Source: Schmidtea nova (taxonomy: Eukaryota). From it: a DNA stretch of 64,000 nt. Below are positions 37,476 through 63,810 of this stretch, piece after piece. A program made the translations under genes and the position numbers. Each line of letters starts with the position of its first letter. Position 1 is the stretch's first letter. Below the pieces are notes generated by a model. It saw only the letters and a list, made by a program, of their open reading frames with translations, ran no database searches and was not told the origin of the DNA. The stretch spans positions 186,000,001 through 186,064,000 of the forward strand of contig CM097882.1 of NCBI GenBank assembly GCA_044892505.1. Reading direction: 5' to 3'.

Positions 37476-38928
37476 CGTAGCCAAAAAAATTAAATAATTA
37501 TTATAAATACCATAGGTATTTATAATAATAATATCATTAAACAAAGTTTTGTTTTAATATGTGATATAAATAAAGATTTACAAATTTGAATATTATATTA
37601 CTCATATTATTTCTATGGCAAATTCCAAAAAAGACAACATTGGTGTCAAAAAGGTGGCTCATGAAGGTAGTCACATGCAGATGAAGATGCCAATTTTCTT
37701 CGACAACGTGGTACCGTGGTTCCAGCAGGTTGACGCTGCACTCGAGCTTGCATCAATAAAAAATGAAGAGACAAAATATTTTCATTTGCTCACCAGTTTA
37801 CCACCAAGAATCCTCGAAGAATATTCGGATCTATTGGACCATCACATCAAACTGCCGTATTCGACGTTAAAAGACGCAATCATCTGGGAATCAAAAGGAT
37901 CGATAACTGAGGCTGCGAACAAATTACTTCAGAAACAAGAGCTTGGTGACCAAAAACCAAGTCAACTGCTCAGGGAACTCAAGCGTAATTACAAATTAAT
38001 GGAACTGAATGGAAACCCACAAACAAGCCAGATCCTGAGATTTCAATTTATAATTTGCATGCCAATTCACATACAACACTTATTAGTGTCAAAAGAAGCA
38101 GACATTGATGAGCTGGCAAACATCGCAAACGTACATATGAGTATCGAACATCATGTTATATCTCAGGTGGAAAATCTACCCACCAACCGAAAGCCAGTAT
38201 CAACAGCAAATAGAAAATCTCCAGAAATCATCATCACCGACAGCAAGCAGTTCATCTCGGCTACATTCAGAGAGATGTGTCAAAGATTCAATGCTGATCA
38301 CAGACATACCACACCATATCATCCTCAATGCAACGGTAAAGCAGCAATAAGGGCACACTCAGATGATGCCCCCAGAAGGTGGGTAAATGAACTTCCGTCA
38401 ATTCTACTTGGAATTCGCAACGTCATCTCCGACGAAACAAATGTATCACCAAGTCAAAGTGTTTTTGGAACTGATGGACGACTATCTGGCGATGTTATAG
38501 TCAGAAGGAAAAGAAATCAAAATTGGAAACCATTCCTACCAAGCGAGTTGAAGGAATCTACTCACCTGTGGCTGAAAGTCGAATCAAGAACCGCCCTCAA
38601 GCCTGTATATGACGGACCATACAAGGTAATAAGCCGAAGCTCAGACTTTAAAATATTTGAAATTCAATTACCAACGAGAACATTACGAGTATCGGTAGAC
38701 AAACTCAAAGCAGCCCATCTTCAAGAATCTAATAGGTCACTCCATGACCTCGGCGGAGGGCTATGTAACCAAATCAATTAGATAATTAATATAAATACCA
38801 TAGGTATTTATAATAATAATATCATTAAACAAAGTTTTGTTTGAATATGTGATATAAATAAAGATTCACAAATTTGAATATTATATTACTTATATTATAT
38901 TCTATGACAAATTCCGAAAAAGACAACA
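37476..38928 (+). mobile_element. 1.45 kb internally deleted Gypsy-type LTR element with ~165-bp LTRs (37476-37639, 38764-38928)
   Basis: Near-identical direct repeats ending AGACAACA; PBS-like TTGGTGTCA after the 5' LTR; purine-rich tract GGCGGAGGG before TGTAAC; no clean TSD. Confidence 0.85.
37615..38781 (+). CDS. In-frame Gag-integrase fusion ORF of the mini LTR element
   Basis: PWFQQVDA...LGDQKPSQLLREL (Gag) followed directly by IITDSKQF...TTPYHPQCNG...YDGPYKV...VSVDKLK (integrase core and GPY/F). Confidence 0.75.
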   Translation: MANSKKDNIGVKKVAHEGSHMQMKMPIFFDNVVPWFQQVDAALELASIKNEETKYFHLLTSLPPRILEEYSDLLDHHIKLPYSTLKDAIIWESKGSITEAANKLLQKQELGDQKPSQLLRELKRNYKLMELNGNPQTSQILRFQFIICMPIHIQHLLVSKEADIDELANIANVHMSIEHHVISQVENLPTNRKPVSTANRKSPEIIITDSKQFISATFREMCQRFNADHRHTTPYHPQCNGKAAIRAHSDDAPRRWVNELPSILLGIRNVISDETNVSPSQSVFGTDGRLSGDVIVRRKRNQNWKPFLPSELKESTHLWLKVESRTALKPVYDGPYKVISRSSDFKIFEIQLPTRTLRVSVDKLKAAHLQESNRSLHDLGGGLCNQIN

Positions 38929-43381: not shown

Positions 43382-44583
43382 AAGAAATGGGTCGTCGCTT
43401 GATCTTTTAATGTCTAAATTTGAATCTGATGAGGAATATGTGATATATTTGTCATTGATATGTCACTGATTTTATTGGCTTTGACATCAGAATCTTTTTT
43501 TTCAGTTGAGAAGGCTTTACTGATTTAATTGTTTCTTCAGACTTAATAGGGCTGGTTTCTTTAATTACATTCGAAAAAGTTCCAAAAATTGTTTTTTTTT
43601 CATTGCATATTTTAAAAAATTATGAAATTGTCTTGTTTTGTCTTTGTATTTATAAGGTTAAAAATGTCGATGTAACCAATCAAGTACATGCATCTATACT
43701 GCATATTGGTGTGCATCATGATTCATTACCGACATTTAAGTGTATGCGGCAAATAACTTTTGTGACCTGTATCTGTGCATGCATGATTCAAATATGTATT
43801 TGTCATGCATTAGTATCGCATTTGTACAAATTAATTTCTTTAATAAAAACTGGTGACAAATAAAATTATTTATAATAAAAAATAGTTTAAACTATTTACT
43901 TTAATAATCACTCTTTTATAAACACACACACACAAAATTAAAAAAAAAAGATTTTCAATAATAAAAAACAAAGACAAATGCAAACTAAATATTTATTGCA
44001 TATCAACAATAGATGAATAATGGAATTTTTTCAATTCCTTTCTTAAAAGCCATGTATGATATTTCTTCACACGCTCGAAGCAATATTCGCATCGATTTAC
44101 ACAAATGCTGGCTTTATTAACAATTGGAAGATCCTCGTCTACCATTCTGAGATGATCGATCAATATAGTACGGAGATCGATACCAGATATTGCTCAGATC
44201 TTGAAAGGTAACATTTCCGGAGGGCAGTAAATGAGATCCGTTATCAATCTAGGGTACAACTTCCATCTTTCCGATGAGAATGGACATTAGTTTATCTAGA
44301 AACAAATAAAAAGTAAAAATAGAATATAAAATAGAATATAAACTATGTTTACCATTAATTGAAAACGAAGACATTTTTTGATGAATAACTGAAAAAACTG
44401 TTGGTATTTATACTAATTTATTTAAACACCTGCATACAAACAATCAACCAATCAGAATCGTACATTCGTATTGCGTATGCTATGCATTCATGGATAATAA
44501 AAAATCCAAAAATTCTTTATCTTCAATTATCGATTTTTTTCGCTAATAATTTGATTAACGCTATTTTGATAATCTATATTTTT

Positions 44584-44950
44584 TTACCCAAGTAAAATGA
44601 TTTTACCGCTAGCAAATATGTTGACGCACATGGGGTTATACTTAATAAATCTCAAAGTCGGAAATATTTCAGGTTTATAAACACATTCTATTATCTTTGA
44701 TAATTCATATAAATTGATATGAGTTCCGATATCTGCAGTGACTGTGATCGATTGAATTTGCAAATCATGTATCTTGAAATGTAAATCTTCTACTTTGATG
44801 GTTTTTTTACATGCCATAATTCGGCACTTACCGGTCTTGAAAAATATTATCGGATATATTCCGCTTCTATCAACAACTTGTTGATGCTTTCCTCATGGAA
44901 ATTGTAAATGAGATACTGAACATTTTTCTTTGTAATTTATGTTTCTTAAC
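44584..44950 (-). pseudogene. TBP-like pseudogene of the older Polinton
   Basis: IIFFKTGKCRIMACKK...YKPEIFPTLRFIKYNPMCVNIFASGKIILLG; orthologous to 50130-50600. Confidence 0.85.
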
Positions 44951-45048
44951 AATTATTTTAAAGAATAATTTTCAAATAATTTCTTAACTATGATAACAAT
45001 TGATTAAAACAAATATAAACAATAATACAATTTTAACAATTTTGAAAA

Positions 45049-45670
45049 ATGGAATTAAGAAATGATGCAGTTTATCAAATTGTTGGTCCTAGTGGTAGTG
45101 GGAAAACTTTATTTGTTTGTAAATTATTACAATCTAAAATGTTGAAGTCAAAATTCAACAAAATTTATTGGCATAGAGAAGCTGATGACGAACAATAAAT
45201 GATTTAAAATCAATTTTGTAAGATAAAAATGACGATAATAAAGGTTTTCGATAAAATCTGGTCATCTAGATTACGACAAGGTGATGTAATTATTATTGAT
45301 GATCTTTATTAGGAAGCAAATAAGGAAAAAACATTTATAATTTATTCACGAAAATAGCAAGACATAAAGGTGTCACAGTTATTTTTATAACTCAAAATCT
45401 GCTTCAGAAAGGTGGAGCTCATCGAACACGTAACCTAAATGTTCAATATTTAGTTTTTTTCAAAAATCCAAGAGATGCCACAGTTATTGATTTCCTTGCA
45501 AGACAAGCATACCCTAACAATCGTAACTTCTTAATCAATGCATTTCAAGATGCGACTCAAACCCCACATGGATATATTTTTCTTGATTTTACTCATCAAT
45601 TTCCAGTTGATTTAAGAGTAAGAACTGATATTTTCAATATCGAAGGTGCAATGGTTTATATACAAAGATA
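45049..45670 (+). pseudogene. Packaging ATPase pseudogene (older Polinton)
   Basis: MELRNDAVYQIVGPSGSGKT start identical to 50693; internal stops and frameshift. Confidence 0.9.
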
Positions 45671-46294
45671 ATATTATGTTTGTAATCAATCATGTTTCTT
45701 AAATCACGTGCCAAACAACCAAAGTCATCAAAACTTAGTAAGGTTTTTAAAAAGAATCGTGAAACAATAATTCCATCTAAAACTAGTTTCACACCTTCGA
45801 AAAAATTAATAACTGAAAATTTTCCATCAATGAATCTTATTTCAAGCAATTTAAAACCGACACCGAAGAAAGTTGGAAAAGTAATAAAATCTTCAAATCA
45901 TCGTAGCTTTCCATTTTTAACGCGTTGTTAAAAGCTCCAAGTGCAAAAAGAATGAATATTTTACAATCATTTCCCAATTATGTCATTGACGATTTACTAG
46001 ATGTTATACTTAAAGTAGACAAAGGTAAAATAAACATAAGTAAATCAAATAAAGTTATTTTAAACAAACACAAGAAACCACAGATTATCTCTAGTAAATA
46101 GTAAAAGTCGAAATCAAATGCATAAAATACTATGTAAACAACAAGGAGGGTTCAATGCCGCCCTTTTGCCATTAGCATTATCGTTATTGGGTGGAGTCAG
46201 TTTATTAAGAAAACCATCAACAACATAAACAATCTGACAAACCTCTTTAAGTCAATTATCTAATCTTACATTAAATTTTTAATCTTCTTGTTGT

Positions 46295-47300
46295 AATGGA
46301 GAAGAAATGGAAGAGCCCGAAAGACCCAGAAGGTTATGGTGGGGTCGAAAAGCTAAACAAAAACGTTCCAAACTCGAAAAAAGAGACACACAAGTGGTTA
46401 TCAGGTCAACTAGCATAAACCAATGTTGAAACGATTTCCAACAAGAGCATATAATACATATGGTATTAATGATTTGTGGCAAATGGATTTGATGGAAATG
46501 ATTCCATATTCAAAAATTAACAAGGGATATAAATATTTTTTGACATATATCAATTTCTTCAGTAGATTTGCACGTGCTGTTCCAATCAAAACAAAGTCAG
46601 CTAATAAAATTGCAATAGCAATTAAAACATTATTTGCTGATGGACATCCCAAGAATATACAAACTGATTTGGGTAACAATATAAAATATTATATACATTT
46701 TAATTATAAATTTAGGTAAAAAATTTACAATAGTAAAGTTAAAGAAATTTTCGCCGGGATTAATCATTACTCTGTATTCTTTCAATTCAAAACAGCTCAT
46801 GTTGAACGATTTAATCGAACATTATGAGATCGGCCCAAAAATTATTTTGTATACCAAGTAATAAGACATGGGTCAATGTATTGCCGAAAATAATTCATAG
46901 TTATAATCATTCTCCGCGTCTAGGTATAAATCGATTGAGACCTGTTGATGTTTCAGCAAAAAATACTGGAAAGATTTCTCGTCAAGTAAAAACATTAAAT
47001 AAACCGAAATATAAAATTAATGATCATGTTCGAATTAGCAAAATTAGTACTTCACCATTCATAAAGAATTTTGATAGTAATTGGAGTGATGAGGTATTTT
47101 AAATATCGAAAATATCCTGTCATGTATGTTATTTCTGACTCTGACAATAATGAAGTCAGTGGAAAATTCCACCACTAACTGTATTTAGAATTCAGAGAAT
47201 ATTGAAAACTAAAACGGTGGGTAAGGATAAACAATACTATGTAAAGTGGCATGGATATCAAAATCAATCATCGATATCAGCAAAAGATTTAGTAAAATGA
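46295..47300 (+). pseudogene. Integrase pseudogene (older Polinton), intron 46673-46715
   Basis: WQMDLMEM, QTDLG and HSYNHSP motifs in broken frames. Confidence 0.88.
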
Positions 47301-47582
47301 ATTTCTATACTATTTTACCTAGTAATAGTTGTCCATTTATCCATCCTGACAATCTAGCTAACAAGTTTATGGTCAATCTTCAAATTCCGAATTATTTACA
47401 TGGTGATTGGGAAATTGCATTGCAAGATTTCGTGTTTTTGTACAACACATTTCCATTTTATAGTCAATGTAAGATTGATTACAAAAAGATTGATTCAAAA
47501 ACATGTAGTGGTCTATTCATCATCAAAAATTTTGAAAGAAATTATACTATTCCTAACCAAAATTTGAATGCTTATTGTTGTA

Positions 47583-48636
47583 AGTAGGTAGATGTGTGGA
47601 GCCGGGAACAATTTGATTTCAAGCCATTTATCCCTAAACTGTATAATATTACGTAATAATTTATAAATTTACCCCCCCCCCTCCCCCCCGGGGGGTAGGG
47701 GGGGGGGTACTTTGTTACGTAATAATTTATTATTACGTAATAATTTATTATTACGTAATACTTTATATATTATGTAATTTTTAAAATTTTTAAATTATTA
47801 CATAAGACTATTTTTATTACGTAATTGATGACGTAATACTGAAATTTATTTATTTTTATTTATTTTTTCATAAAATATAAAATAAATTAATTTTTTCAAC
47901 ATTTTTTCCAAAATTTTCAAAAATGCTCAGATTTCAATAATTTTTATACCAATCTACTGAGAATTCAAAGGCGAACAAAAAAGGCACAAAAAAGGAAAAA
48001 CATAAAAAATTGGTATCATCCGACCAAATTTTACACGTAAAAAGGGTCAAGTCGGGGAAATTCCTTAAATTGATTAGAAATTAATAATTTTTATGCTAAT
48101 CTTCTTTCTATTGAAANNNNNNNNNNNNNNNNNNNNNNNNNNNNNNNNNNNNNNNNNNNNNNNNNNNNNNNNNNNNNNNNNNNNNNNNNNNNNNNNNNNN
48201 NNNNNNNNNNNNNNNNNNNNNNNNNNNNNNNNNNNNNNNNNNNNNNNNNNNNNNNNNNNNNNNNNNNNNNNNNNNNNNNNNNNNNNNNNNNNNNNNNNNN
48301 NNNNNNNNNNNNNNNNNNNNNNNNNNNNNNNNNNNNNNNNNNNNNNNNNNNNNNNNNNNNNNNNNNNNNNNNNNNNNNNNNNNNNNNNNNNNNNNNNNNN
48401 NNNNNNNNNNNNNNNNNNNNNNNNNNNNNNNNNNNNNNNNNNNNNNNNNNNNNNNNNNNNNNNNNNNNNNNNNNNNNNNNNNNNNNNNNNNNNNNNNNNN
48501 NNNNNNNNNNNNNNNNNNNNNNNNNNNNNNNNNNNNNNNNNNNNNNNNNNTGAAAAACAAATCATAACAACACACATAAAAATCAACAAAATTAAAAACT
48601 AATGTTTTTTGATAAAAATTTATTAAAATAACAAAG
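47583..48636 (+). repeat. Left terminal inverted repeat (spans a gap)
   Basis: Reverse complement of 62317-63160 on both sides of the N gaps. Confidence 0.93.
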
Positions 48637-48749
48637 TAAGGGGTTTTCAAAAAACATAAATTTTTAAAATACAACAAGTGAGAATTTATCAACATTTATT
48701 AATAAATACACATATATATACAACATCAATGTTATTTATTCGAATCCAT

Positions 48750-49193
48750 CTATGCAATTCTAGCGCTTTTTATTTTCCAAATTGGAGACATTGATTCTTT
48801 TGGATCGATTTTATATCCTTGGATGGATATATCAATAAACCAATTTTCATTATCTGTATATTCAACTGATTGAAATGCATCATGAAATTCGGTGTTCCTG
48901 TTGTTGATGAATATTGTTTCATTGCAAGATAATTTCTTGTTGATTTTCGTCAACACTTTATTGATTGCAACAACATCTTCTTTATAAATCTGACCAATCA
49001 AGTTGGAATATTGAGAAGTCGACAGCTTTACCGGATTTGGGACCTTGAAAAAAATTTCGTTTACCAAGAAAAACATTTGGTAATCGTGAAACATCTGAAC
49101 CGGTTGTAAATCAAATTTGTTTTGAATTGATTTGTTATCGTTCCTAACTGGTTTCATTTTAATTGGACTCGATTTGATGAAAATATTTTGCAT
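48750..49193 (-). CDS. Polinton accessory protein, 147 aa (possible OB-fold ssDNA-binding protein)
   Basis: Clean ATG ORF with TATAAATA ~36 nt upstream; beta-rich C-terminus IDISIQGYK...PIWKIKSARI. Function is inference. Confidence 0.65.
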   Translation of the reverse strand: MQNIFIKSSPIKMKPVRNDNKSIQNKFDLQPVQMFHDYQMFFLVNEIFFKVPNPVKLSTSQYSNLIGQIYKEDVVAINKVLTKINKKLSCNETIFINNRNTEFHDAFQSVEYTDNENWFIDISIQGYKIDPKESMSPIWKIKSARIA

Positions 49194-49668
49194 TTTATGA
49201 ACAAGACTATTTTTATTCTATTATTTATACTCGTCATTGTCTGTGTGCATCCAATAAAATTTTTGCACATGTCTTGCAAATCGATTACACATGTATGCAA
49301 GTTGACGATTATCTCTCTACCTCAATTTCTTTCTATTGTAATTTATTTACATATCTATNNNNNNNNNNNNNNNNNNNNNNNNNNNNNNNNNNNNNNNNNN
49401 NNNNNNNNNNNNNNNNNNNNNNNNNNNNNNNNNNNNNNNNNNNNNNNNNNNNNNNNNNNNNNNNNNNNNNNNNNNNNNNNNNNNNNNNNNNNNNNNNNNN
49501 NNNNNNNNNNNNNNNNNNNNNNNNNNNNNNNNNNNNNNNNNNNNNNNNNNNNNNNNNNNNNCATAACAACACATAAAAAAAAAATCAACAAAATTAAAAA
49601 CTAATGTTTTTTGATAAACTTAATATATAAACAATAAAACGATAAAAGAACATTTTTAAAATAAATAT

Positions 49669-50025
49669 TTATTTATTTACATCAAGCTTTCGTTCATAAC
49701 GATCCAGCTGATATAAGATTTCCTCGCGATCTTTTAAATATGTCCAATTGGGACAACATTTGCAATGAAAGCAGCAAATCGGTTCAATTTTCAACTGATT
49801 TTTCTTCCTATGCTCTCTAATGATATCCTTGATATCGATTCCAGTAAGCATAAATATCTTTACTGGGATCAATTCTGGAGCCCAGTACGTTAAATCCTTC
49901 AGTTGATAAGGATACAGTCTTTCAACCGTTTCGATCAATACTTGGGTAAGTTCTTCTAAATATAAAATTAATAAAAATTAATATATTATTTAAAGATATT
50001 TACCGTCTGTGGATTTATCTTGCAT
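49669..50025 (-). CDS. Two-exon Polinton protein (~102 aa, Cys cluster CCFHCKCC); exons 50025-50004 and 49955-49669
   Basis: ATG plus 22-nt exon, 48-bp GT-AG intron, in frame; the homologue in the older element has the same 22-nt first exon (44374-44353). Confidence 0.8.
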
Positions 50026-50129
50026 TTTGATAAAAATAATGAATAATTTACGTGTTTATATATGAAATATAGTAACACACAACAACCAATAAAAAACATA
50101 CACACTCATTACGTATACATTACAAATAC

Positions 50130-50600
50130 TTAGGTAATACTTAGTAAAAAGTTTAGGAATTCTTCCTCATCAATCATCGATTTTATTTCGTTAATAATTT
50201 GTTCAACCAAATCATGATAATCCAAAGTTTTAATACCAAGTATTACTATTTTGCCACTTGCAAAAACGTTTACACATAATGGATTAAATTTAGAATATCT
50301 CAAAGCTGGAAATATTTCTGGTTCATAAACACAATTAGATTTTTTCAATAATAAATATAAATTAACATGGGATCCTATATCTGCAGTCACTGTAATTGAT
50401 TGAATTTGAATATTTTCTATTGTATATTGTAAATCTTCATTTTTTAAAGGTTTTTTGCACCCCATAATTCGACATTTACCTGATTTGAAAAATATAATCG
50501 TATATTTTCCACTTCTATCGACAATTTGTTGAGGTTTCCCCATTGGAAATTTCATGTGCGAAACTGAGCATTTACCTTTATAATTTATGTTGGTCAACAT
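50130..50600 (-). CDS. TATA-binding protein (TBP)-like protein, 156 aa
   Basis: Two TBP repeats: TIIFFKSGKCRIMGCK and IQSITVTAD...YEPEIFPALRY...VNVFASGKIVILG (cf. TBP YEPELFPGLIY...LIFVSGKVVLTG). Confidence 0.88.
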   Translation of the reverse strand: MLTNINYKGKCSVSHMKFPMGKPQQIVDRSGKYTIIFFKSGKCRIMGCKKPLKNEDLQYTIENIQIQSITVTADIGSHVNLYLLLKKSNCVYEPEIFPALRYSKFNPLCVNVFASGKIVILGIKTLDYHDLVEQIINEIKSMIDEEEFLNFLLSIT

Positions 50601-50692
50601 TTATGATGTAATAAAAATTTAAATATTTTTTATTCGTGTAAAACAATTAATTAAAACAAATATAAACAATAACAATTTCTTTAATATTTTAA

Positions 50693-51316
50693 ATGGAATT
50701 GAGAAACGATGCAGTATATCAAATTGTCGGTCCAAGTGGAAGTGGAAAAACTTTATTTGTTTGTAAATTATTACAATCAAAATTATTCAAATCAAAATTT
50801 AATAAAATTTATTGGCATAGGGGAGCTGATGATGAACATGGAATGACTCAAGATCAATTCTGTAAAATTAAAATGACAATAATAAAGGGATTCGATAAAA
50901 ACTGGTCGTCTAGATTACGAAGTGGTGATGTAATTATTATTGATGATTTGTATCAAGAAGCAAATAAAGAGAAGGATTTCAATAATTTATTCACAAAAAT
51001 TGCTAGACATAAAGGAGTTACAGTAATTTTTATTACTCAGAATTTATTTCATCAGGGTGGTAGTCATCGAACTCGAAATTTGAATGTTCAATATCTAGTT
51101 ATTTTTAAAAATCCTAGAGATGCTACAGTTATTGATTTTCTTGCAAGACAGGCTTACCCTAATAATCGGAATTTCTTGATCAATGCATTTCAAGATGCAA
51201 CTAAAATCCCACATGGATATATTTTTCTCGATTTTACTCAACAATGTAGCGATGAATTACGTGTTAGAACTGATATTTTTAACAAAGAAGGAGCAATGGT
51301 TTATAAACAAAGTTAA
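50693..51316 (+). CDS. A32/FtsK-like DNA packaging ATPase
   Basis: Walker A GPSGSGKT, Walker B IIIDD, ARH, ITQN and FKNPRD, typical of Polinton ATPases. Confidence 0.95.
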   Translation: MELRNDAVYQIVGPSGSGKTLFVCKLLQSKLFKSKFNKIYWHRGADDEHGMTQDQFCKIKMTIIKGFDKNWSSRLRSGDVIIIDDLYQEANKEKDFNNLFTKIARHKGVTVIFITQNLFHQGGSHRTRNLNVQYLVIFKNPRDATVIDFLARQAYPNNRNFLINAFQDATKIPHGYIFLDFTQQCSDELRVRTDIFNKEGAMVYKQS

Positions 51317-51336
51317 ATTCGTGTTCGAAATTAATC

Positions 51337-51882
51337 ATGAGACTTAAAGCACGAGCTAAACATCCAAAGCTATCAAAACTAAGAAAAGTTATTAAAAAGA
51401 ATCGTGAAACATTAATTCCATCTAAAACGAGTTTCACACCTCCGAAAAAATTAATCACCGAAAATTTTCCCAAAATGAATCTAATTTCACACAATTCAAA
51501 ACCCGATAAACCAAAGATACCAAAGGCAACTGCAAGTAAAAATTCTAAAAATCATCGCAGTTTTCCATTTTTCAATGCCTTACTCAAGGCTCCAAGCATT
51601 AGAAGAATGAGTATTTTACAATCATTTCCCAATTATATTATTGATGATTTACTTGATGTTATAGTGAAAATTGTCAGAGGTAAAATTAATATCAGTAAAT
51701 CAAACAAAAATGTATTGAACAAACACAAGAAACCATTATTATCACTCGTAAATACTAAAAATCGAAAACAAATGCGTAAAATAATATATAAACAACATGG
51801 AGGGTTTATTGCTGCTCTATTACCATTAGCATTATCTTTATTGGGTGGAGCAGGATTACTGGGAAAACCTTCAACATCATAA
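51337..51882 (+). CDS. Basic core/DNA-condensing protein with adenovirus pX-like C-terminus
   Basis: Very Lys/Arg rich; ends QHGG|FIAALLPLALSLLGG, resembling the adenoviral pX GG|xLPxLIP tail. Confidence 0.7.
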   Translation: MRLKARAKHPKLSKLRKVIKKNRETLIPSKTSFTPPKKLITENFPKMNLISHNSKPDKPKIPKATASKNSKNHRSFPFFNALLKAPSIRRMSILQSFPNYIIDDLLDVIVKIVRGKINISKSNKNVLNKHKKPLLSLVNTKNRKQMRKIIYKQHGGFIAALLPLALSLLGGAGLLGKPSTS

Positions 51883-51885
51883 ACA

Positions 51886-52119
51886 ATGGGACAAACTCCT
51901 TTGAGTCATTTATCTAATCTTACATTAAATTTTAAATCTTCTTGTTGTAATGCAGAAGATATGGACAAATCCAAAAGACCCGGCAGGTTTCGGTGGAGTC
52001 GAAAAGCTAAAGAAAAAAGTCCCAAACTCGAAAAAAGAAACTCAAAAATGGTTATCGGGACAACTGGCATACAGTCTAAACAAACCGGCATTGAAACGAT
52101 TTCCAACAAGAGCATATAA
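51886..52119 (+). CDS. Small ORF overlapping the integrase 5' end in another frame (77 aa)
   Basis: ATG 3 nt after the previous stop; MGQ start, CC pair, basic tail; corresponding sequence retained in the older copy (~46231-46420). Confidence 0.5.
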   Translation: MGQTPLSHLSNLTLNFKSSCCNAEDMDKSKRPGRFRWSRKAKEKSPKLEKRNSKMVIGTTGIQSKQTGIETISNKSI

Positions 52120-53004
52120 AACATATGGCATTAATGACTTGTGGCAAATGGATTTGATGGAAATGATTCCCTATTCAAATATTAACAAGGGATATAAATA
52201 TATTTTAACATGTATCGATGTTTTCAATAGATTTGCTAGGGCTATTCCAACTAAAACAAAGTCTGCAAACGAAATGGCTGTTGCGATCAAAACAATGTTT
52301 GAATCTGATCGTCCAAAGAATTTACAAACTGATTTGGGTAAGAAGGTATACTAATTTTATCCATTTTTAATTATAATTTAGGTAAAGAATTTTACAATAG
52401 TAAAGTCAAAGAAGTTTTGGCCGGGATTAATCACTATTCGGTGTTCTCTCAATTCAAAGCAGCCCATGTTGAAAGATTTAATCGTACATTAAGAGATCGA
52501 CTAAAAAAATATTTTGTGCATCAAGGTAATAAAACATGGATTAATGTACTACCAAAAATAATACATAGTTATAATCATTCGCCACATAAAGGAATAAATG
52601 GATTGAGACCTGTTGATGTTTCAACGAAAAATACTGGATCTCGCAAATTAAAAACTAAAATAAAGAAACCGAAATATAAAATTGGTGATCATGTTCGAAT
52701 TAGTAAGATTAGCGCTTCGCCATTCATCAAAAATTTTGATAGTAATTGGAGTGATGAGGTATTTCACATCTCAAAAATTAATACTATCCAAGATCCTGTC
52801 ATGTATGTTATTTCTGACTCTGACAATAATGTCGTCAGTGGGAAATTTTATGAACAAGAATTACAAGTTATTCCTCCGCCAACTGTATTTAGAATTCAAA
52901 AAATATTAAAAACTAAAATTGTGGGTAATGATAAACAATACTACGTAAAGTGGCATGGATATCAAAACCCGTCATGGATATCATCAAAAGATCTAGTAAA
53001 ATGA
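51950..53004 (+). CDS. Retroviral-like integrase with C-terminal chromodomain; exons 51950-52337 and 52382-53004
   Basis: WQMDL (D), QTDLG|KEF (D), VERFNRTL (E); removing a 44-bp GT-AG intron restores QTDLGKEFYN; chromodomain YYVKWHGY..SWI. Confidence 0.95.
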
Positions 53005-53996
53005 ATTTTTATATGATTTTACCAAGTAATAGTTGCCCATTAATTCATCCAGATAATCAAGCTAGTAAATTCATGATCAATTTACAAAATCCAATTTATT
53101 TACGTGGTAATTGGGAAGTTGCATTGCAAGATTTCACATTTGTATATAACAAATTTCCTTATTACAGTCAATGCAAAATTTACTACACGATAGTTAGAAC
53201 TGAAACTGTAAATGAATACTTTCAAGTTCAAACTAATTATGAAGATACTCAATATTTGAATGATAAAGTTGAATTACATCTAGATAAAATATATTTACAT
53301 ATAAATTGTGATATAACACCATTTTATTTTAAGTTTGAAAATATAGAAGATGCGAATAAATTTGGGTTTAATGAATTAAAAATCATTAGCAACAATTCAA
53401 CTTATAAAATGCTTATTCCTTCTGAATATTCATCAGAGAAAATGCATATATCAATAAGTTATGATTTAGAAACAGATTTACTTTATGAATTCCAAGATGA
53501 AATATACATGACAAAAGTTGAAGATTTATATAATTATTTGTCAATTTTCTGTTCTCATATATTTCAAGGTGTTGAAATTATTGACAATGTATTCAAATTT
53601 AAACTGAAAGACGAAGTGAAAGAAGTTATATTTGATCAAAAACTGATCAATACACTTGGATTAAAATATGAAAAATATCAAGATAGAGAAGTTAAAGGAA
53701 TTCGCAAAGCCAAATTATTTAATCATCATCAACAAATGTTCATTTACAGTAACATTATTGAACCAATTATTGTCGGTGATTCTCTAGTTCCTTTACTGAA
53801 ATCAGTTTGGATTAATAAATATGAACAAGATGAAGTAGTACAAATTGTTGTTGATAATCCCATGTATTTATCGCTTTCAACTTCATGTATAAACAATATT
53901 GAGATTAATATTCGTGACGATAGTGGAAAGCTTATCAACTTTTCAAAAGATTCAAAAACACATTTGACATTACATTTTCGTAAATTAGATGATTAA
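53001..53996 (+). CDS. Minor capsid (penton-like) protein
   Basis: MNFYMILPSNS...N.ASKF...L.GNWEVAL and MFIYSNIIEP.IVGDS.VPLL...LHFR, typical of Polinton minor capsid; ATG at 53001 overlaps the integrase stop. Confidence 0.9.
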   Translation: MNFYMILPSNSCPLIHPDNQASKFMINLQNPIYLRGNWEVALQDFTFVYNKFPYYSQCKIYYTIVRTETVNEYFQVQTNYEDTQYLNDKVELHLDKIYLHINCDITPFYFKFENIEDANKFGFNELKIISNNSTYKMLIPSEYSSEKMHISISYDLETDLLYEFQDEIYMTKVEDLYNYLSIFCSHIFQGVEIIDNVFKFKLKDEVKEVIFDQKLINTLGLKYEKYQDREVKGIRKAKLFNHHQQMFIYSNIIEPIIVGDSLVPLLKSVWINKYEQDEVVQIVVDNPMYLSLSTSCINNIEINIRDDSGKLINFSKDSKTHLTLHFRKLDD

Positions 53997-54381
53997 TCCG
54001 GACATAATTTCACTGTATAGTAACGGACAAACTGGTGGGGAAATACCATATTTTGTTGGGAAACAGTATGGATCTGGTTGGTTAAGGACTATTGGGCGAT
54101 TTGCACTCCCAATTCTTAAGCGAATAGGTAGTTTTGGTTTGAAAACTGCCAAAGATGTGATCATGAATGATCAGAAAATATTACCATCATTGAAAACAAA
54201 TGCATTGTCTGCTATTGGCAAAGTACTGCCTACTGTGACTAGTATGATTCCTAGTGTAACAAATATGTTTAATAAAGATGAACCTGAACCGGAACCGGAA
54301 CAAGTGGGGCCTAGGCGTAAAAAACATCGAAGGTATATAAACAATAGAATGAAAGGACATGGAACTATATTTGCAAAATGA
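53989..54381 (+). CDS. Small virion protein with amphipathic helix (adenovirus pVI-like, putative membrane-active)
   Basis: QTGG and QYGSG|WLRTIGRFALPILKRIG amphipathic segment; basic C-terminus; lies between the capsid genes. Confidence 0.72.
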   Translation: MINPDIISLYSNGQTGGEIPYFVGKQYGSGWLRTIGRFALPILKRIGSFGLKTAKDVIMNDQKILPSLKTNALSAIGKVLPTVTSMIPSVTNMFNKDEPEPEPEQVGPRRKKHRRYINNRMKGHGTIFAK

Positions 54382-55598
54382 TTTGTGGTAAATCTGAATT
54401 ATGTCTTTTTGACCGACCATCTCCTCAAGCAGTCATTGAATATGGTGCATTTGAAGAAGTATTTCCCATGAATTCTATTACAGATGGTAGAAATGATGTG
54501 GAATTTTACATTAACGGATCTCAATCTGAATACTTAGATTTGAATGATACTTTACTAACAGTTCAAATAAAAGTTGTAAATGCCGATAAAAAAGATTTGT
54601 CTGCTACGGATGATGTTATACCAAACAATTTTATGTTTCATACTCTATTCAAGGACGCCATTCTTGGGTTTAATAATATAAAAATTGAAGGTGGAAACAA
54701 TACATATGCACACAAGGCAATAATCGAAACTATTTTAAATTATAATAGTGATACTAAAGAAACTTGTCTTACTCCAATGGGATATGGAGATTCTGATGAG
54801 AGAAAAGCATGGATCAAAGGCTCAAAATTGTTCACAATGTGTTCATCTCTACAACTGGATTTCATGGATCAACCGAAATATTTATTACCAGGTGTCAATG
54901 TTCACATCAGACTGAAGCGATCTGATTCTGCACTATCATTATATTCAAAAAATGGCGCACCAAAATGTCAATTAGTTGATGCAAAGTTAATGATTCGTCG
55001 CGTTCGAGTTGAACCATCTGTATTAGCTGGACATCAAGTTGGACTTAACTCAAAACACGCCATTTATCCAATAAAAACCAAAGAAATCGTACAATTTGCT
55101 ATTGGTAAAGGTGCATCATCTTTCTACAAAGAACAAATATTCGGAGATCGAAGGATGCCTAATTTTATTCTGGTCACATTTCAAAGTGAAACTCAATACA
55201 ATGGATCATATAATGCATCTAGTTCGAAATTCAAACATTTCAATGTAACTTCCCTATCTCTATCGAAAAACACTGATTATAGAGAAACATACACTCAAGA
55301 TTTCGAAAATGATAATTATTGTACTACATATATGCAGTCGATGGTCAGAAATATGGGATATTTAGATATGAATTTGAATTGTGGTATAACACTTGCCGAT
55401 TTTAAAAACAAATACCCTTTCTTTACATTTGTTTTGGCTCCGGATTTCGATTTAAATCAAAGTCAATTACCTCAAAATGGAAATTTGAGATTGGATATAA
55501 AGTTTTCTAAAGCTATTGAAGAACCAGTACATGTAATAATATATGGAGTATTTGAAAATGAAATTCAAATTTCTGCTAATCGAACAGTATTGGTTTGA
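54378..55598 (+). CDS. Major capsid protein (double jelly-roll)
   Basis: KSELCLF..P.PQ, EYLDLNDT, QPKYLLPGV...L.R, FKHFNV and GNLRLDIKF motifs typical of Polinton MCP. Confidence 0.92.
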   Translation: MICGKSELCLFDRPSPQAVIEYGAFEEVFPMNSITDGRNDVEFYINGSQSEYLDLNDTLLTVQIKVVNADKKDLSATDDVIPNNFMFHTLFKDAILGFNNIKIEGGNNTYAHKAIIETILNYNSDTKETCLTPMGYGDSDERKAWIKGSKLFTMCSSLQLDFMDQPKYLLPGVNVHIRLKRSDSALSLYSKNGAPKCQLVDAKLMIRRVRVEPSVLAGHQVGLNSKHAIYPIKTKEIVQFAIGKGASSFYKEQIFGDRRMPNFILVTFQSETQYNGSYNASSSKFKHFNVTSLSLSKNTDYRETYTQDFENDNYCTTYMQSMVRNMGYLDMNLNCGITLADFKNKYPFFTFVLAPDFDLNQSQLPQNGNLRLDIKFSKAIEEPVHVIIYGVFENEIQISANRTVLV

Positions 55599-55665
55599 GC
55601 AGAGCTCAGACATTACTGGTTTAAACTAACATTATAAATGTGCAATTCAAAGTTAACAATTTGTC

Positions 55666-56065
55666 ATGGAGTAAGTTTTTATTATTTATCAAATAAATCT
55701 ATTTAAATAGTTCTATTCAGATTAATCGAATTGGAAAACAATTATTGGGAAATGAATTTATTGGAGTATATCCACTAGACAAAATACCTTATTTAGATGA
55801 CAATCAAGCCATAGTCGTCAATACACAATCATCTACTCTAAGTGGCGAACATTGGATAGCTGTATATGTAAAGCCGATCAAGATATATGCATTCGATCCA
55901 TTCGGATGTTACTATCCAGGTTTATTAGTTAGTAAACTGCAAACATTAGGAAAACCTATTGAATATAATCGAATTCGATATCAAGATCCATTAACAATTA
56001 CTTGTGGTCAACATTGCCTTGCATGGCTTAATTCAATGTTAAAAAGTATAAACAATGTAGTTTAA
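55666..56065 (+). CDS. Adenain-like cysteine maturation protease; exons 55666-55670 and 55711-56065
   Basis: Catalytic GEHW, FDPFG and Q..TITCGQHC. No in-frame ATG without splicing; a 40-bp GTAAGT..TAG intron gives MDSIQINRIGKQLLGNEFIGVYP. Confidence 0.88.
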
Positions 56066-56068
56066 TAT

Positions 56069-56503
56069 ATGTTTTTAGAAAAAATGACTTGTTATTTTAT
56101 TGATATTTACGGCTATAATGATAATTGTGGTGGAAAAATTATTAAAGAATTATGTATTATGAATGTTAATAATATTTTTCGACCAAAATATTGGATATAT
56201 AATGATGTTCCTTTTTGGGCTGGAATTGGTGAACCTGATAGATTAGAATGGTATGAAGGTGAAGATCATTTTTGTCCAACTTGTATTTTGAAAGAAATTG
56301 AAGATGTTGGTGCGATTTTCTATGTTACTGATCAAGATAAACTTTCTGTTTTAAAAAGATATTTCCCCTCCCTAAGATTAATTAAGTATAATGTTAAGGA
56401 AGTTGAAACTTTTCCTGACAATATTTCATGTCCATATCGAGATCATACAAATTGTGCATATAAAGGGTGTTTGGTGGGGGTTTTAGATTATTTGAAAAAT
56501 TAA
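56069..56503 (+). CDS. DEDD-fold nuclease-like protein with putative E-C-H-C zinc site
   Basis: FIDIYGY...IIKEL N-terminus and CPYRDHTNCA C-terminus. Confidence 0.6.
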   Translation: MFLEKMTCYFIDIYGYNDNCGGKIIKELCIMNVNNIFRPKYWIYNDVPFWAGIGEPDRLEWYEGEDHFCPTCILKEIEDVGAIFYVTDQDKLSVLKRYFPSLRLIKYNVKEVETFPDNISCPYRDHTNCAYKGCLVGVLDYLKN

Positions 56504-56812
56504 TGATATGTTTAAATTAATTGCTTTGAAATACAAAATTAATTGATTTGCAATTGAAATGCATGACCTCTATGGTTATCGTGCATGAGTAATCGTGTGT
56601 GTGTATTAACGGAAATTATAATGACGTGTTTGATAATACAAACATCTGGTAATTTCATGTTGTTTGTGTGCGAGCATTTCTCTAACCTATATCGATTCTG
56701 ATTGGTTGGTTAATAAAATTTGAAATTTCATGCTTTATATACACTATACTTTTACTTTTTAGTCACTTTTAATCACAAACTTTAAACCGCATTAATACCA
56801 ATACTCTAAAAA

Positions 56813-57295
56813 ATGTTCAATTTTACTATTTCAAAGCAAAGACAACTCGCCGGAGGAATTAATGGTAAATTTCTGATTTTTATTTTTTATATTTCTTATA
56901 TTTATTTTATTAGAATTAAATATCGCGAATAATATCGCAAACACTCTAACAGCAACAACTAGCGGAAATGGAGCCGCATCATCAGTTGGAAAATCTAACA
57001 TAAATCGAAATAATGGTAAATTTTCTAAAATGATTATTATTATTTTTATTTATAATTTTTAGAAAATTTGCTAATTAATGTATCTAAATTCCATGAAGTA
57101 GATATTGATGGTGCTAATTATATGCCGAATTATGCCCCAAATTATATGCCGAATTATGCCCCAAATTATGCTCCGAATTATGCTCCGAATTATGCTCCTA
57201 ATTATGCGTCAAGTAATGCCCTAAATGACTGCAGTATTTCGGATGTCCTGAATTCTGGATCGAATTTCGTTGGAAAAGTATCGAAGAAATGTTAG
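56813..57295 (+). CDS. Three-exon Asn-rich protein with (NYAP/NYMP)n repeat; exons 56813-56864, 56914-57015, 57063-57295
   Basis: Two phase-1 GTAAAT..TTAG introns (49 and 47 bp) give one open frame of ~128 aa; missed by the ORF track except for the last exon. Confidence 0.75.
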
Positions 57296-58115
57296 TATTT
57301 ATTGTATTTTCGTTTAATTTCTGTTTTAAAGTTATTATTTGTTTTTTTATTTTAAAGTTATTATTATTTGTTTTTTATTTTAAATTAATATTTTATGATG
57401 AAGAATAAATTTACTATATCTTTAATGTAATATGTAATTGTTTGTTGAACCATTACGTATTAAGTTAAAGATAAATAGTTTATAAAATTAATTATATTTA
57501 TATTACGAAGAAAGAATTTTAGTTTTTTCTATAATAAAAATTATATAATGAACATATTTTAATGAAAATATATTATTTTATGACGAAGAAATCTATGTTC
57601 TAAATCTATGATAAATATTATGCTGATAACCTATTTCATTTTATGAGATTAAGTTTTAATGATATTTATTTTTAATAAATGTTTTATGATGAAATTAAGA
57701 ATAGATTGTGAGGGAAATTTTAGGAATATTTATAACAAATGATATTTATTTTCAATATTATAAAGTATTATTAAAAGTTATAATAAAAAATAATAATAAT
57801 AATAATACTAACTTAATGATAATATTAAAAACTAACATGTTTATCATATAACATACGGTAACATAATCGTTAAATTATCATATTTCGTTAATCGCACATC
57901 ATACAGTTACATAACCCTTTCAAACATAAACTTTATCTTTATTTTGACATTTGACTAACTTATTATGTAATAGTTTAAACTGATAAAATAGATTTAACTT
58001 TTTGGTAATAGGTTAAGCTTATGTTTATTTTTCAATTATTTTTTAATTATTTTATAATTATTTTTTAATTATTTTATAATTATTTTATCATTATTTTAAA
58101 GGTTCAGATTATCCA

Positions 58116-58553
58116 TTGTACTGTAATAGTACTTTACATAATGATTGCCATCACATTATGGAAAAATACTATTCCTACAAATATAATGGTGTCACCCACC
58201 TCCTCTGTCCTAAATGTAAAATTATAGAAACGATATCATATAGAGAATTCTTTAACAAACATAGGTCCCATCTTACTCAATATATGCCTTCAAAAAAATC
58301 ACTTTTTAAGAGTTTAAATCAAAACCAAATTAATTTCAATTATAATAATAATAACTTTAATCAAAATAATAATAACAATAATAATAATAAAAATGCCAAC
58401 ATTAACAACAACAATAATCTAAATAATAATAATAATTTACAAAATATCAATAAAAGAAAAAACACAACAAATATGGATTCAGTTCCTACAAAAATACAAA
58501 TAATCGACATCAGTGATGATGAAGATATTAATATTGATAATAATAATAATAAT

Positions 58554-58617
<64 letters not shown>

Positions 58618-61600
58618 GTAGTAATATTCATACTATAACCATCAGTGATGATGAAGATATTAATAATATTGATAATAATAGTAGTAGTAGTAATATTCAT
58701 ACTATAACCATCAATGATGATGATGAAGAAATAATCATCATCAGTGATGATGAAAATTCCCAATTAAATAATAATATAAATAATAATCAAATTGGATATG
58801 GGTTAGTCGAAGTCAATTCTGACTTGAACGACAATCATGTTATAATAAAACTAGATGTCACAAATTTAGAATTAAAAACGGTCTCAGTGCCTGACATTTT
58901 GTTAAATAAATTAAATTTCTATGTTAATAAATTAAAATCATGTAAAATTCAATTTTGCCTTAAGGTGGAATTTGAGAAAGATGATGAGTTACAATCTTTC
59001 GTCATCTCAAATTCTGCCAGAGTTTGGAGCGATACCTTCATTGACGAAGGTATTTCAAATTTAAATGAGAAAATAGTTCAAATAAATGAAAAAGGTAGTA
59101 ATTGGACTATCAATAAAATCGAGTACATAAGTTTTGTTCTCACTAAATTTTCAGAAATAAGTCGGTTAAGTGGCAATAGTTTTATTAAAACCCCTAAATC
59201 ATTAAAGAATTTAAGCTGTCTTATAAATGTAATTAATAATGACAATTTTTGTTTCTTGTATAGTTTCCTATCAATTATTAAATATGAAAATGTCAATAGA
59301 CAATATAGAAATCGTCCTACTTCCTACGATCTTTCACAAATTAAATTTGACCCTAATGATATGCCGATGAAACTGGCAAATATAAGTAAATTTGAAAATC
59401 AAAATCCCGGCTATAGTATTAATGTCCTTAGTTATGACGAAAAGGCCTTGATAGACATTTCTGATGAAGATGCAGTTTTGAAGCATCCTTTTATTGATAT
59501 AATTTATCGAAGTAAGGTAGTAGGAGGAATACCTATAAATTTATTATTAATTGAAAATAAAAATACTTATCATTATGTGGGAATCACAGATTTAAATAGA
59601 TTCCTTAATTGTAGGAATAGTTCAATCACTCCTGTTAGGATTTGTAGCCAGTGGTGTCCTAGGTGTTTAAACGGTTTTAGGAACAATGAGTCTTTTAATA
59701 GGCATAGGGGTCTTTGTGATAGAAATCAGCTGGGTACTACCTTGTACACATTACCCAAAAACAAATATCTTGAATTTACTGATTGGAAGAAAACTGTCAC
59801 TCCTCCCTTTGTTATTTACGCCGACTTTGAGGCTATCTTACCAAAAGATGTTAAATACTTTCAACGTCACTTGCCGATTTCTGCTGGCTTACTTCTAATT
59901 AATAATTTTACCGGTGTAAAAATTTATAAATCATTCGTCGGTTTAGATTGTGTCAATCAATTTCTTAATGAAATTGAGTTGATTAGTAAACATATAGTGA
60001 CGCCTTTCTTTTATAAAAATTATCAAAAGAAAATGATAATTACCGACGTTCAACAATTAGATTTCGAAAACAGCACATCTTGTTATTTGTGCAATAAACC
60101 TTTAGTTTGTCCAGTTAGGGACTATGACCATTTTACCGGTCTATTTCTTGGCGCAGCTTGCAAAGCTTGCAATGTTTCAAGGCAAATTAGACATACCCTT
60201 CCTGTCATCTTTCATAATTTAAAGGGTTATGATCTACATCACATCTTAAAATTTGGCCTTTCAAAATACCATTCATGGAATATTAGTTGTATTCCTTTGA
60301 CCAGCGAGAAATTTCTTAGTCTTTTTGCTAGGATTGACTCCTTAACCGTTAAGTTCATAGACTCTTATCAATTTGTCAGCGAGTCTTTAAATAATGCTGT
60401 CAAAACTTTATCTTCTTTACCCTTGACCGAATCTGAATTTCAGGGTACAATAATAACAGCAAAGGGAATTTTTCCGTATGACACGGCAACTTCTTTAGAA
60501 GTTTTACAAAACACTCATCAGTTACCTCCTATCTGGAAAGACGTGAAGCCAGATGAATATGAGACAGCTCAGAGAATTTGGCGTGAAACCTCATGTACAT
60601 CGCTTTATGATTACATGATGGTTTATTTGAAACTCGATGTTTTCCTTTTAGCTGATTATTTTCAGCAATTTAGAGCTAAGTCTATTGTACATAACCGACT
60701 AGAACCACTAAATTTCTTAGGAATTCCAGGTATGTCTTGGAATTCCGCCTTATTAACTTTAAAATCTCCAATTGAGCTCCTCACCGATATGGAGATGTAT
60801 AACTTTTTCGAGGGCGGTATCCGTGGCGGATTAACCTTTGTAAATAAACACTATGTAAAAACAGGCCCGGATACTGCATTGCTTTACATAGACATAAATA
60901 ATTTATATGGTTGGGCATTAAGTCAACCTTTGCCATGCAGTAACTTTGAATGAGTCACAGATGACCACTTATTAAATGATATAATTGTTGAGTGCACATC
61001 GGTAGATTTAGATGTACTTCATTATGGTTATACCATAGAAGTGGATTTAGAAATACCGGCGTCGATTCACGACAAACTGGATGATCTTCCAGTTGCCGCT
61101 GAAAAGATGTGTGCACCGGGTTCGAAAGTTGAGAAGCTGCTGCTTACGCACTATCCAAAGAGGAACTACGTTCTTCATTGGAGGCTTCTGCAACTGTTTA
61201 TTAAATTAGGTGTTAAAATATCAAAAACACATAGAGCAATAAAATTCACACAAGATAAAATTTTTCAAAATTATATAAATACAAATACGGCGTTACGAGC
61301 AACGTCGACAAATAAATTAGATAAAAATTTTTATAAATTACTAAACAACAGTCTTTACGGCAAGACTGTTGAAAATCTTAAAAAACGTATAAATTTGCGT
61401 TTATGCAATTCGTCACAGAAGTTAATGACTTACTGCTCCAAACCGACTTTCCGAAAATCCACTAAGATCGACGATGACTTGATTTCTGTTTTGTTACGGA
61501 AGGAATCAGTGTGTTTGGATAGACCTAGTTACATTGGTCAAACAGTACTAGATTTATCCAAACTTAGGATGTACCAGCTACAGTATGAAGAGTTGCAAAA

Positions 61601-62261
61601 ATATCGTGACGACTTCAACTGCGAAATCAATATCGTTGCTGGGGACACTGATTCCTTCTTTTTGGAAATTAAAAATATTTCGTTAGATATACTCTTACCG
61701 GCAATGATTAGGGACAATCTTCTTGACACTTCGAATTATGACCCAAATCATCCTTTATACAGTAGGAACCTTGATTCTGTCGTTGGAAAGTTCAAAGACG
61801 AGAATAAAGGGCTACTGTATGAAGAGTGGGTGTTCTTAAGACCTAAGTGTTATAGTTTAATGGGCGATGAGGCATGTATGAAAGCTAAGGGGATTTGCAT
61901 GAAAGATGCTGGACTAACACATCAGTCGTATCTAGATTGTTATTTAAATAACAAAATATACACAGTCCCCCAGTTTAGAATAACTAGTAAGAACCACCAG
62001 TTATTTAGTATAAAAAATAATAAGAGGGCCTTGACTTGTAAGGATGACAAGCGTAACTGGATTGATAAAAATAAAAGTTTGGCATATGGCCATTATAGAG
62101 GGGGTGACACCAATATATTTGTAGATGATCCTGATGAGTGGGCAAATACAGAATGGCTAGATGCCGAATGGCCTCATACAGAATGGCCCGATGCCGAAAA
62201 TCTTGAATGGGATAATGTCGATAACATAATGTTGCCGATAAATGAAGACACAATGTCGTAG
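58116..62261 (+). CDS. Protein-primed family B DNA polymerase polyprotein with one in-frame TGA at 60951-60953
   Basis: Exo YADFE, FHNLKGYD, KFIDS; pol YIDINNLYG, KLLNNSLYGKT, AGDTDS; KCY. The two ORFs are in the same frame, separated by a single TGA. N-terminal GSNW and NDNFCF..HY motifs; EndoVII-like CYLC..DH.TG..AC..CN insert. Confidence 0.93.
58335..58790 (+). repeat. Coding (AAT)n poly-Asn tracts interleaved with repeated I-x-I-S-D-D-E units
   Basis: Directly visible in DNA and translation. Confidence 0.9.
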
Positions 62262-62316
62262 ATAATTGTGGAAATGCCGAGGGACTTGCATGTCCAACCA
62301 GATAATATAGACGGCT

Positions 62317-63160
62317 CTTTGTTATTTTAATAAATTTTTTATCAAAAAACATTAGTTTTTAATTTTGTTGATTTTTTTATGTGTTGTTATGATTTGTTTT
62401 TCANNNNNNNNNNNNNNNNNNNNNNNNNNNNNNNNNNNNNNNNNNNNNNNNNNNNNNNNNNNNNNNNNNNNNNNNNNNNNNNNNNNNNNNNNNNNNNNNN
62501 NNNNNNNNNNNNNNNNNNNNNNNNNNNNNNNNNNNNNNNNNNNNNNNNNNNNNNNNNNNNNNNNNNNNNNNNNNNNNNNNNNNNNNNNNNNNNNNNNNNN
62601 NNNNNNNNNNNNNNNNNNNNNNNNNNNNNNNNNNNNNNNTTTCAATAGAAAGAAGATTAGCATAAAAATTATTAATTTCTAATCAATTTAAGGAATTTCC
62701 CCGACTTGACCCTTTTTACGTGTAAAATTTGGTCGGATGATACCAATTTTTTATGTTTTTCCTTTTTTGTTCGCCTTTGAATTCTCAGTAGATTGGTATA
62801 AAAATTATTGAAATCTGAGCATTTTTGAAAATTTTGGAAAAAATGTTGAAAAAATTAATTTATTTTATATTTTATGAAAAAATAAATAAAAATAAATAAA
62901 TTTCAGTATTACGTCATCAATTACGTAATAAAAATAGTCTTACGTAATAATTTAAAAATTTTAAAAATTACGTAATATATAAAGTATTACGTAATAATAA
63001 ATTATTACGTAATAATAAATTATTATGTAACAAAGTACCCCCCCCTCCCCCCGGGGGGGAGGGGGGGGGGGTAAATTTATAAATTATTACGTAATATCAT
63101 ACAGTTTAGGGATAAATGGCTTGAAATCAAATTGTTCCCGGCTCCACACATCTACCTACT
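62317..63160 (-). repeat. Right terminal inverted repeat (spans a gap)
   Basis: Reverse complement of the left TIR with a few substitutions and one ~11-bp indel. Confidence 0.93.
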
Positions 63161-63810
63161 GTTGTATGTATTTTAACAATGGTCAATCTTCAAATTCCGA
63201 TTTATTTACATGGTGATTGGGAAGTTGCATTGCAAGATTTCGTGTTTTTGTACAACACATTTCCATTTTATAGTCAATGTAAGATTGATTACAAAAAGAT
63301 TGATACAAAAACATGTAGTGGTCTATTCATCATCAACAATTTTGAAAGAAATTATACTATTCCTAACCAAAATTTGAATGCTTATTGTTGTATGTATTTT
63401 AAAAATGGTTGTTTAAATATTAATTGTGATTTTACTCCATATACAATTACATTTGAAAATATTGAAGAAGCAAAACTAATGGGAAGTCAACTTAAAATTG
63501 CAAGTACACTGAAAGAATATCAATTAAAGTTCGTGTTATTTAAACCGAATAGTTATTTGAAAGAAGATATTAAGATAACAATATCTTATGATGCATAAAT
63601 TGAAGAAACATTTACATTTCCGAATGATTTGTATATAGTGCAACTGGAAGATTTTTCTAACTAGTTATCATTCAATTGCTCCTATATCTTTAAAACTCTA
63701 GAGATTAATACATGGTTTCAATTCAGTCTCAATGATAATATTAGTGAAGTTACATTTGATAAAACTTGGTAAATACTTTAGTAATAAATAAACAAACATG
63801 TAGAGATCGA
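63161..63810 (+). pseudogene. Continuation of the older Polinton's minor-capsid gene (with a 226-bp duplication), truncated
   Basis: Resumes exactly after the TSD; HGDWEVALQDF...LNINCDFTP...VTFDKTLVNTL parallels 53001-53700. Confidence 0.88.

Follow-up and report, generated by a model that had tools for sequence, protein, structure and literature searches.

Organisation of the locus

The window, by which we mean the whole 64-kb stretch of Schmidtea nova DNA analysed here, contains a young Polinton/Maverick element inserted into an older one (Table 1). Polintons/Mavericks are characterised by long terminal inverted repeats, AG..CT ends and a 6-bp target duplication. The young element displays all of these, and similarity between its inverted repeats is 96% in the parts that can be read (535 and 87 nt). 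We identified in it pPolB (PF03175), rve integrase (PF00665), A32 ATPase (PF04665) and adenain protease (PF00770); this copy carries the integrase, protease and PolB in broken form. The putative major capsid protein ORF406 gave no direct Pfam match, and neither the capsid nor the penton candidate matched a PDB sequence; both assignments derive from indirect profile matches only. An intact 156-residue frame resembling the TATA-binding protein (TBP) had been proposed inside the inverted repeats by an earlier, sequence-only reading of this DNA, and our analysis confirmed both the frame and its placement within the element.

Table 1. Coordinates of the features discussed, numbered from the first letter of the window.
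Feature	Position	Strand	Remarks
Broken TBP gene of older element	44495..44951	-	older element is insertion host of the young one
Box before older element's ATPase	45014..45021	+	same box
Young Polinton/Maverick element	47583..63160	+	15,578 nt; AGT...ACT ends; 6-bp target duplication GTTGTA
Left terminal inverted repeat	47583..48636	.	part reads N
ORF147, possible single-strand DNA-binding protein	48750..49193	-	lead only; canonical TATA 36 nt upstream
Canonical TATA box before ORF147	49222..49229	-	TATAAATA
Mini-TBP gene	50130..50600	-	156 aa, frame intact
Second motif, upstream of TBP gene	50652..50660	-	TTTGTTTTA
Box before ATPase	50661..50668	+	TATAAACA
A32-type packaging ATPase	50693..51316	+	207 aa; PF04665 E 1.4e-6
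Box before ORF181	51302..51309	+	inside ATPase 3' end
ORF181, putative core protein	51337..51882	+	basic; role inferred
Box inside ORF181	51787..51794	+	upstream of 77-codon frame at 51886
Box before integrase	51878..51885	+	CATAAACA
rve integrase	51950..52354	+	frame ends early in this copy; ~350 aa in relatives
Box variant before putative penton	52930..52937	+	GATAAACA
ORF340, putative penton	52974..53996	+	weak profile match to capsid-protease intervening gene of another Polinton clade
Box before ORF130	53888..53895	+	inside ORF340
ORF130, putative virion core or membrane-active protein	53989..54381	+	role inferred
Box before major capsid gene	54336..54343	+	inside ORF130
ORF406, putative double-jelly-roll major capsid protein	54378..55598	+	family profile vs PF21738-positive capsid genes, iE down to 2e-8
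Adenain-type protease frame	55697..56065	+	PF00770 E 1.6e-4; no start codon in this copy; no box
Box before ORF144	56047..56054	+
ORF144	56069..56503	+	conserved in clade; no family match
Protein-primed DNA polymerase B	58158..62261	+	PF03175 E 1.9e-8; two frames in this copy; no box
Right terminal inverted repeat	62317..63160	.	part reads N

The mini-TBP gene and the ATPase lie head-to-head, 92 nt apart. This arrangement, noted in the sequence-only reading, holds in this genome but is not general, as only 2 of the 22 metagenomic loci showing both genes share it (18 are tandem and 2 arranged otherwise). The same reading had cited an orthologue in the older element as a sign of a stable family gene. 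The two copies are indeed homologous (75% in DNA over 460 nt, 67% in protein), but the older one lacks an ATG and carries one in-frame stop and indels. Because it is broken, it could not alone show stability; that claim is borne out instead by intact relatives elsewhere in the genome, with an open TBP frame in 28 of the 29 loci of family B.

Several further features were observed around the element. A 218-nt repeat, 98% alike, flanks it (47369–47586 and 63179–63396) and can be read as a tandem duplication within the putative penton gene of the older element, where the young one inserted. Polintons of the TBP-bearing clade often lie inside or beside other Polintons (L202, L209, L212, and 44495–47582 here), and an insertion preference is possible. 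Palindromes of the form TTACGTAA are numerous in the inverted repeats (47650–47850, 62910–63100), which also have a G/C hairpin-like stretch close to each end. ORF147 adjoins the TBP gene in many loci; its Atlas neighbours are hypothetical proteins of Nucleocytoviricota, with Pox_I3 on 12% and DUF5871 on 16% of the members of two clusters. Related elements carry cargo such as a ubiquitin-conjugating enzyme, RING fingers or KilA-N proteins (L045:222-719, L082:13312-13893, L091:55-846, L092:7052-7912). Elsewhere in the window, a forward-strand frame of 1634 aa (30362–35266) encodes an Hsp90 fragment together with a ubiquitin domain, DUF1759 and an aspartyl protease, and resembles a BEL/Pao-type gag-pro that has captured host domains. 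A 388-aa frame (37477–38898; DUF7041, weak rve) flanked by 134-nt direct repeats, 94% alike, corresponds to a small LTR-like element, and 40-nt inverted arms 934 nt apart (22905–23918) mark a possible MITE.

A TBP with a reduced N-lobe and a rewritten DNA face

Residues 63–139 of mini-TBP, corresponding to its C-repeat, matched PF00352 (E 8.9e-18; 64 bits against a cut-off of 22.9), and the N-repeat gave no Pfam match above cut-off. All 35 matches in a PDB sequence search were TBPs or TBP fusions, and the motifs YEPEIF, VFASGK and FFKSGK are present as had been claimed. The structure model predicts the two-lobed beta-sheet saddle of TBPs, so that profile and model both support the fold anticipated earlier. 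The N-repeat, previously described as shortened, is reduced, but shortening is not the whole of the change. In the model, the first helix of at least four residues begins no earlier than residue 81, so that neither N-lobe helix is left. The basic N-lobe helix H2, site of TFIIA, TAF1, Mot1 and Brf, is absent from both the model and the alignment.

The residues that contact DNA in canonical TBPs are also changed. Three intercalating phenylalanines (F116, F190 and F207) are kept in Polinton TBPs, and the equivalent of yeast F99 is not a conserved phenylalanine. The central asparagines are represented by N69 only, the other being replaced (N159S), and the substitutions V71N, V122R, I194R and L205N leave the DNA face without its usual hydrophobic character. 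The altered residues are fixed and show no drift. At R196, which binds the backbone, conservation is lacking; together with the loss of one of the four phenylalanines, this could weaken DNA binding by mini-TBP. The acidic stirrup, by comparison of sequences, was kept as the earlier reading had stated, with E186 in 49/50 and E188 in 50/50 short-form Polinton TBPs. Mini-TBP is thus a member of the TBP superfamily and not a canonical TBP.

A longer form of Polinton TBP (165–175 aa; L082, L089, L091, L092, L093) retains N-lobe segments and shares with the short form the rewritten DNA face and the upstream box described below. Since the longer form combines these segments with that face and box, the loss of the N-lobe helices was likely a later event.

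Distribution and selection of the TBP family

We searched the 1.25-Gb, AT-rich genome and found the identical mini-TBP protein in 138 of 150 scored matches, the other 12 being 99% alike (19,398 candidates). Those relatives of this genome's TFIIB that bear a name come from animals. The element is present in more than 100 near-identical copies, indicative of a burst, and 28 of the 30 loci fetched share one DNA sequence, from which it follows that the family spread recently. The genome contains three further TBP families with 62–73% protein identity. Across six family pairs, TBP dN/dS is 0.10–0.26 compared with 0.03–0.05 for the ATPase, with dS near saturation. In the one pair compared by halves, the cut-down N-repeat is more constrained than the C-half (0.08 versus 0.22).

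A protein search returned 135 relatives among 157 candidates, and the 120 listed are mostly 145–160 aa long and 38–71% identical. Polinton core genes are present in 34 of 75 metagenomic TBP loci; another 18 have ORF147 or ORF144 alone, and the remaining 23 have none of these. All of these 23 are no longer than 3.1 kb, and a core gene is found in 21 of the 23 loci of at least 3.5 kb. In a FastTree phylogeny of 111 sequences, the 75 Polinton-type TBPs form one long-stemmed clade (support 0.66). The host TBP exons cluster apart from them, with canonical eukaryotic TBP (support 0.96). Besides this canonical TBP with introns, the host encodes several divergent paralogues (L221–L226), one of which is intronless (L225/L239, 199 aa). 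Taken together, mini-TBP is real, functional as judged by selection, and widespread in one Polinton clade.

A TATA-like box upstream of most virion-module genes

Eight sites of a TATA-like box, every one in sense orientation, lie in the element between 50661 and 56054. We counted the core ATAAACA in the 110 nt before the first ATG, in loci thinned at about 90% identity; the sequences are related and the counts therefore overstate independence. The box was found upstream of the ATPase in 16/18 loci, ORF181 in 14/17, integrase in 13/16, penton in 12/15, ORF130 in 8/8, capsid in 10/11 and ORF144 in 8/13, where shuffled sequence gives fewer than one per gene class. It also precedes PLA2-type genes in 6/6 loci; these belong to a known class of virion accessory genes (PMC8502044). 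Four further loci carried this box and no other. The integrase carries the box though it is not clearly a late gene. Protease genes lacked it (0/6), and it is rare upstream of TBP (1/54), ORF147 (3/22) and PolB (1/8).

Pooling the seven classes from the ATPase to ORF144, with the protease excluded, gave 98 windows, of which 81 contain ATAAACA in sense orientation, 87 ATAAACR and one the antisense word. Near words are scarce in the same windows (ATAAATA 9, ATAAAAA 8, TATAAAAG 1, GTAAACA 0). The consensus (T/C)ATAAAC(A/G), or YATAAACR, corresponds to a TATA box with a fixed C at position 7. Where the box falls inside the preceding gene, codon choice tracks it (28/43 versus 25/240). The distance from box to ATG has its mode at 35–38 nt, predicting very short leaders, and if transcription is assumed to start 30–35 nt past the box, the next ATG is the gene start in 76–78 of 83 cases, compared with 46 for a start at 8 nt.

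The TBP genes themselves show a different promoter type: a canonical TATA box occurs in 20/54, where 6.9 are expected; TCAY follows at +28 to +30, and the spacing to the ATG is the same. No canonical TATA lies upstream of the TBP gene of the present copy. The motif TTTGTTTTA found there precedes 9/54 TBP genes (including L031, L047, L075 and L079), seemingly those without a canonical TATA.

The same genome contains a second Polinton clade (L173–L212), recognised by a PF21738 capsid and a PLA2-integrase fusion. In 17 of its 20 stretches no TBP was found, and the matches in the others are nested elements of the TBP clade (L202, L209) or a fragment (L212). None of 55 upstream windows of this clade contained the box. 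As its copies are 77–96% alike, it counts as about one lineage, and it is the sole TBP-less control and a distant clade. All box-bearing loci were fetched for having TBP, so protein and box are linked by correlation.

Proposed mechanism and alternative explanations

Based on the fold, the stirrup, the DNA face, the loss of N-lobe helices, purifying selection and the strand, spacing and gene preference of the box, we consider it probable that the helix-stripped TBP binds YATAAACR before most virion-module genes and recruits host TFIIB and RNA polymerase II, with a predicted switch from early to late expression. TBP, ORF147 and PolB would be made first, from host-type or other promoters. Mini-TBP would then bend the box with its C-lobe on the 5' half and its remodelled N-lobe on the 3' half containing C7. 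This is the orientation in which TBP lobes read a TATA box (PMC1636458), and because the N-lobe reads the 3' half, C7 would lie opposite R44 and M46, both new, and the position of the lost F99. Altered specificity, offered earlier as a possibility, gains residue-level support and a candidate target box. The intact stirrup would recruit host TFIIB and Pol II to the packaging and capsid genes, and transcription would begin about 30 nt past the box, yielding one short-leader mRNA per gene. Mini-TBP would evade TFIIA, TAF1, Mot1/BTAF1 and Brf, all of which dock on the deleted helix, and with Brf and other N-lobe regulators escaped it would serve Pol II only. The promoter box and the early/late split, which the sequence-only reading had missed, are the stronger part of the finding.

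Alternatively, host TBP/TFIID or one of the host's TBP paralogues could recognise the box as a weak TATA variant. Mini-TBP would then have another job: it might sequester TFIIB and so dampen host transcription, or bind the element's DNA during replication or packaging. There is a crystal structure of wild-type TBP with a C(-25) variant box (PDB 1qn3), so host TBP can occupy a C-variant sequence; the genome encodes several divergent paralogues (L222–L226), and a stirrup kept intact beside altered DNA contacts would suit such a role. We nevertheless regard this explanation as rather unlikely, since C7 is fixed and few windows hold the near words that host TBP would accept, the box is not in use in the TBP-less clade of this host, and the altered residues are not drifting. 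The box might also be taken for a host Forkhead-type site acting as an upstream activator element. The Forkhead consensus is RYAAAYA, which ATAAACA fits, but the absence of GTAAACA, the nearly exclusive sense orientation and a spacing that matches the core-promoter position make this very improbable.

Another source of the box could be a helper large DNA virus, as for virophages, with the TBP incidental or merely assisting. A Polinton-like virus is reported to share its helper's early motif, and Sputnik and mavirus to use their helpers' late promoters (10.1101/2022.07.28.501842). The shared early motif reported there is AAAATTGA, not the ATAAACA box; moreover, the present element integrates with 6-bp duplications, has burst to its high copy number, and often gives its TBP gene a host-type TATA and initiator, so we consider a helper promoter improbable. 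We give almost no credence to a host TBP captured recently or without function, a reading for which homology and nothing further speaks: selection and distribution refute it, and the host TBP exons group away from the Polinton-type sequences. Neutral evolution of a host retrocopy, which the earlier reading had named as one outcome that would overturn it, was thus not observed.

Returning to the mechanism favoured here, we think the balance tips slightly towards a still broader statement: that a wide Polinton clade may run the smallest viral late-transcription switch yet described, in which one 150-residue TBP, lacking the regulator-bound helices and re-surfaced for YATAAACR, would bring host TFIIB and Pol II to every particle gene. 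If true, this would be a convergent one-protein counterpart to the herpesvirus system as well as an orthogonal TBP-promoter pair, and evidence that 'transposons' keep a timed viral programme while copying its factor by the hundreds across a host genome. It bears on whether animal Polintons are true viruses and on how their genes are timed. Because the proposal comprises a dedicated TBP and a dedicated box before particle genes, a single small protein and a site of 8 bp suffice to test it directly. As a natural minimal TBP, the protein shows which parts of the fold are dispensable when only TFIIB is bound and which residues may reset box specificity. If orthogonal to host TBP, the pair could serve as a compact synthetic promoter system.

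Comparison with known systems

PolB, rve integrase, packaging ATPase, adenain protease, capsid genes and inverted repeats are common to the present element and to adintoviruses/animal Polintons-Mavericks (PMC8502044). The sequence-only reading had placed TBP outside the canonical Polinton gene set. The gene is not wholly new to print, as the label 'TBP' appears once, in the Fig. 5 legend, for related MELD viruses (PMC8502044; preprint 10.1101/697771), but sections 7, 8 and 10 of that paper contain no analysis of TBP or promoters. In the literature searched on Polinton/Maverick/adintovirus TBPs and promoters, mostly judged at listing level and with subscription papers aside, we found nothing on this TBP family or box. 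What is already published is a light mention of the gene; neither the stripped architecture nor the matching box turned up in that literature.

Cellular TBPs (eukaryotic TBP/TRF and archaeal TBP) have about 180 aa, compared with about 150 aa in Polinton TBPs, which are about 25–28% identical to them, lack F99 and, as modelled, both N-lobe helices, and present a polar DNA face (R, N, S, T, M, C). TBPs of Nucleocytoviricota and mirusviruses are likewise described as virus-coded and without N-lobe regulator signatures (PMC7221094, PMC10132985), and the Atlas neighbours of mini-TBP include a Nucleocytoviricota-rich TBP cluster. In large DNA viruses, most TBPs come paired with a virus-coded TFIIB (PMC7221094). 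The stirrup of these TBPs varies, conservation at one position being about 40%. In contrast, the Polinton stirrup is nearly invariant, and Pfam found no TFIIB/cyclin match in 17 + 32 element proteins, a search that a very divergent TFIIB could escape.

The beta/gamma-herpesvirus vTBPs (KSHV ORF24, HCMV UL87), with their TATTWAA late box, resemble the present system in comprising a virus-coded TBP mimic, a polar DNA face and a non-canonical TATA before structural genes (PMC12529657), a likeness that here is one of sequence pattern. KSHV ORF24 is reported to lack the acidic stirrup, to bind Pol II directly and to need five other viral proteins (PMC12529657), whereas mini-TBP is a bare 156-aa core that has the stirrup and lacks the large Pol II-binding domain. 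We claim no shared ancestry; by analogy, mini-TBP would work like the herpesvirus vTBP-TATT system without being a member of it.
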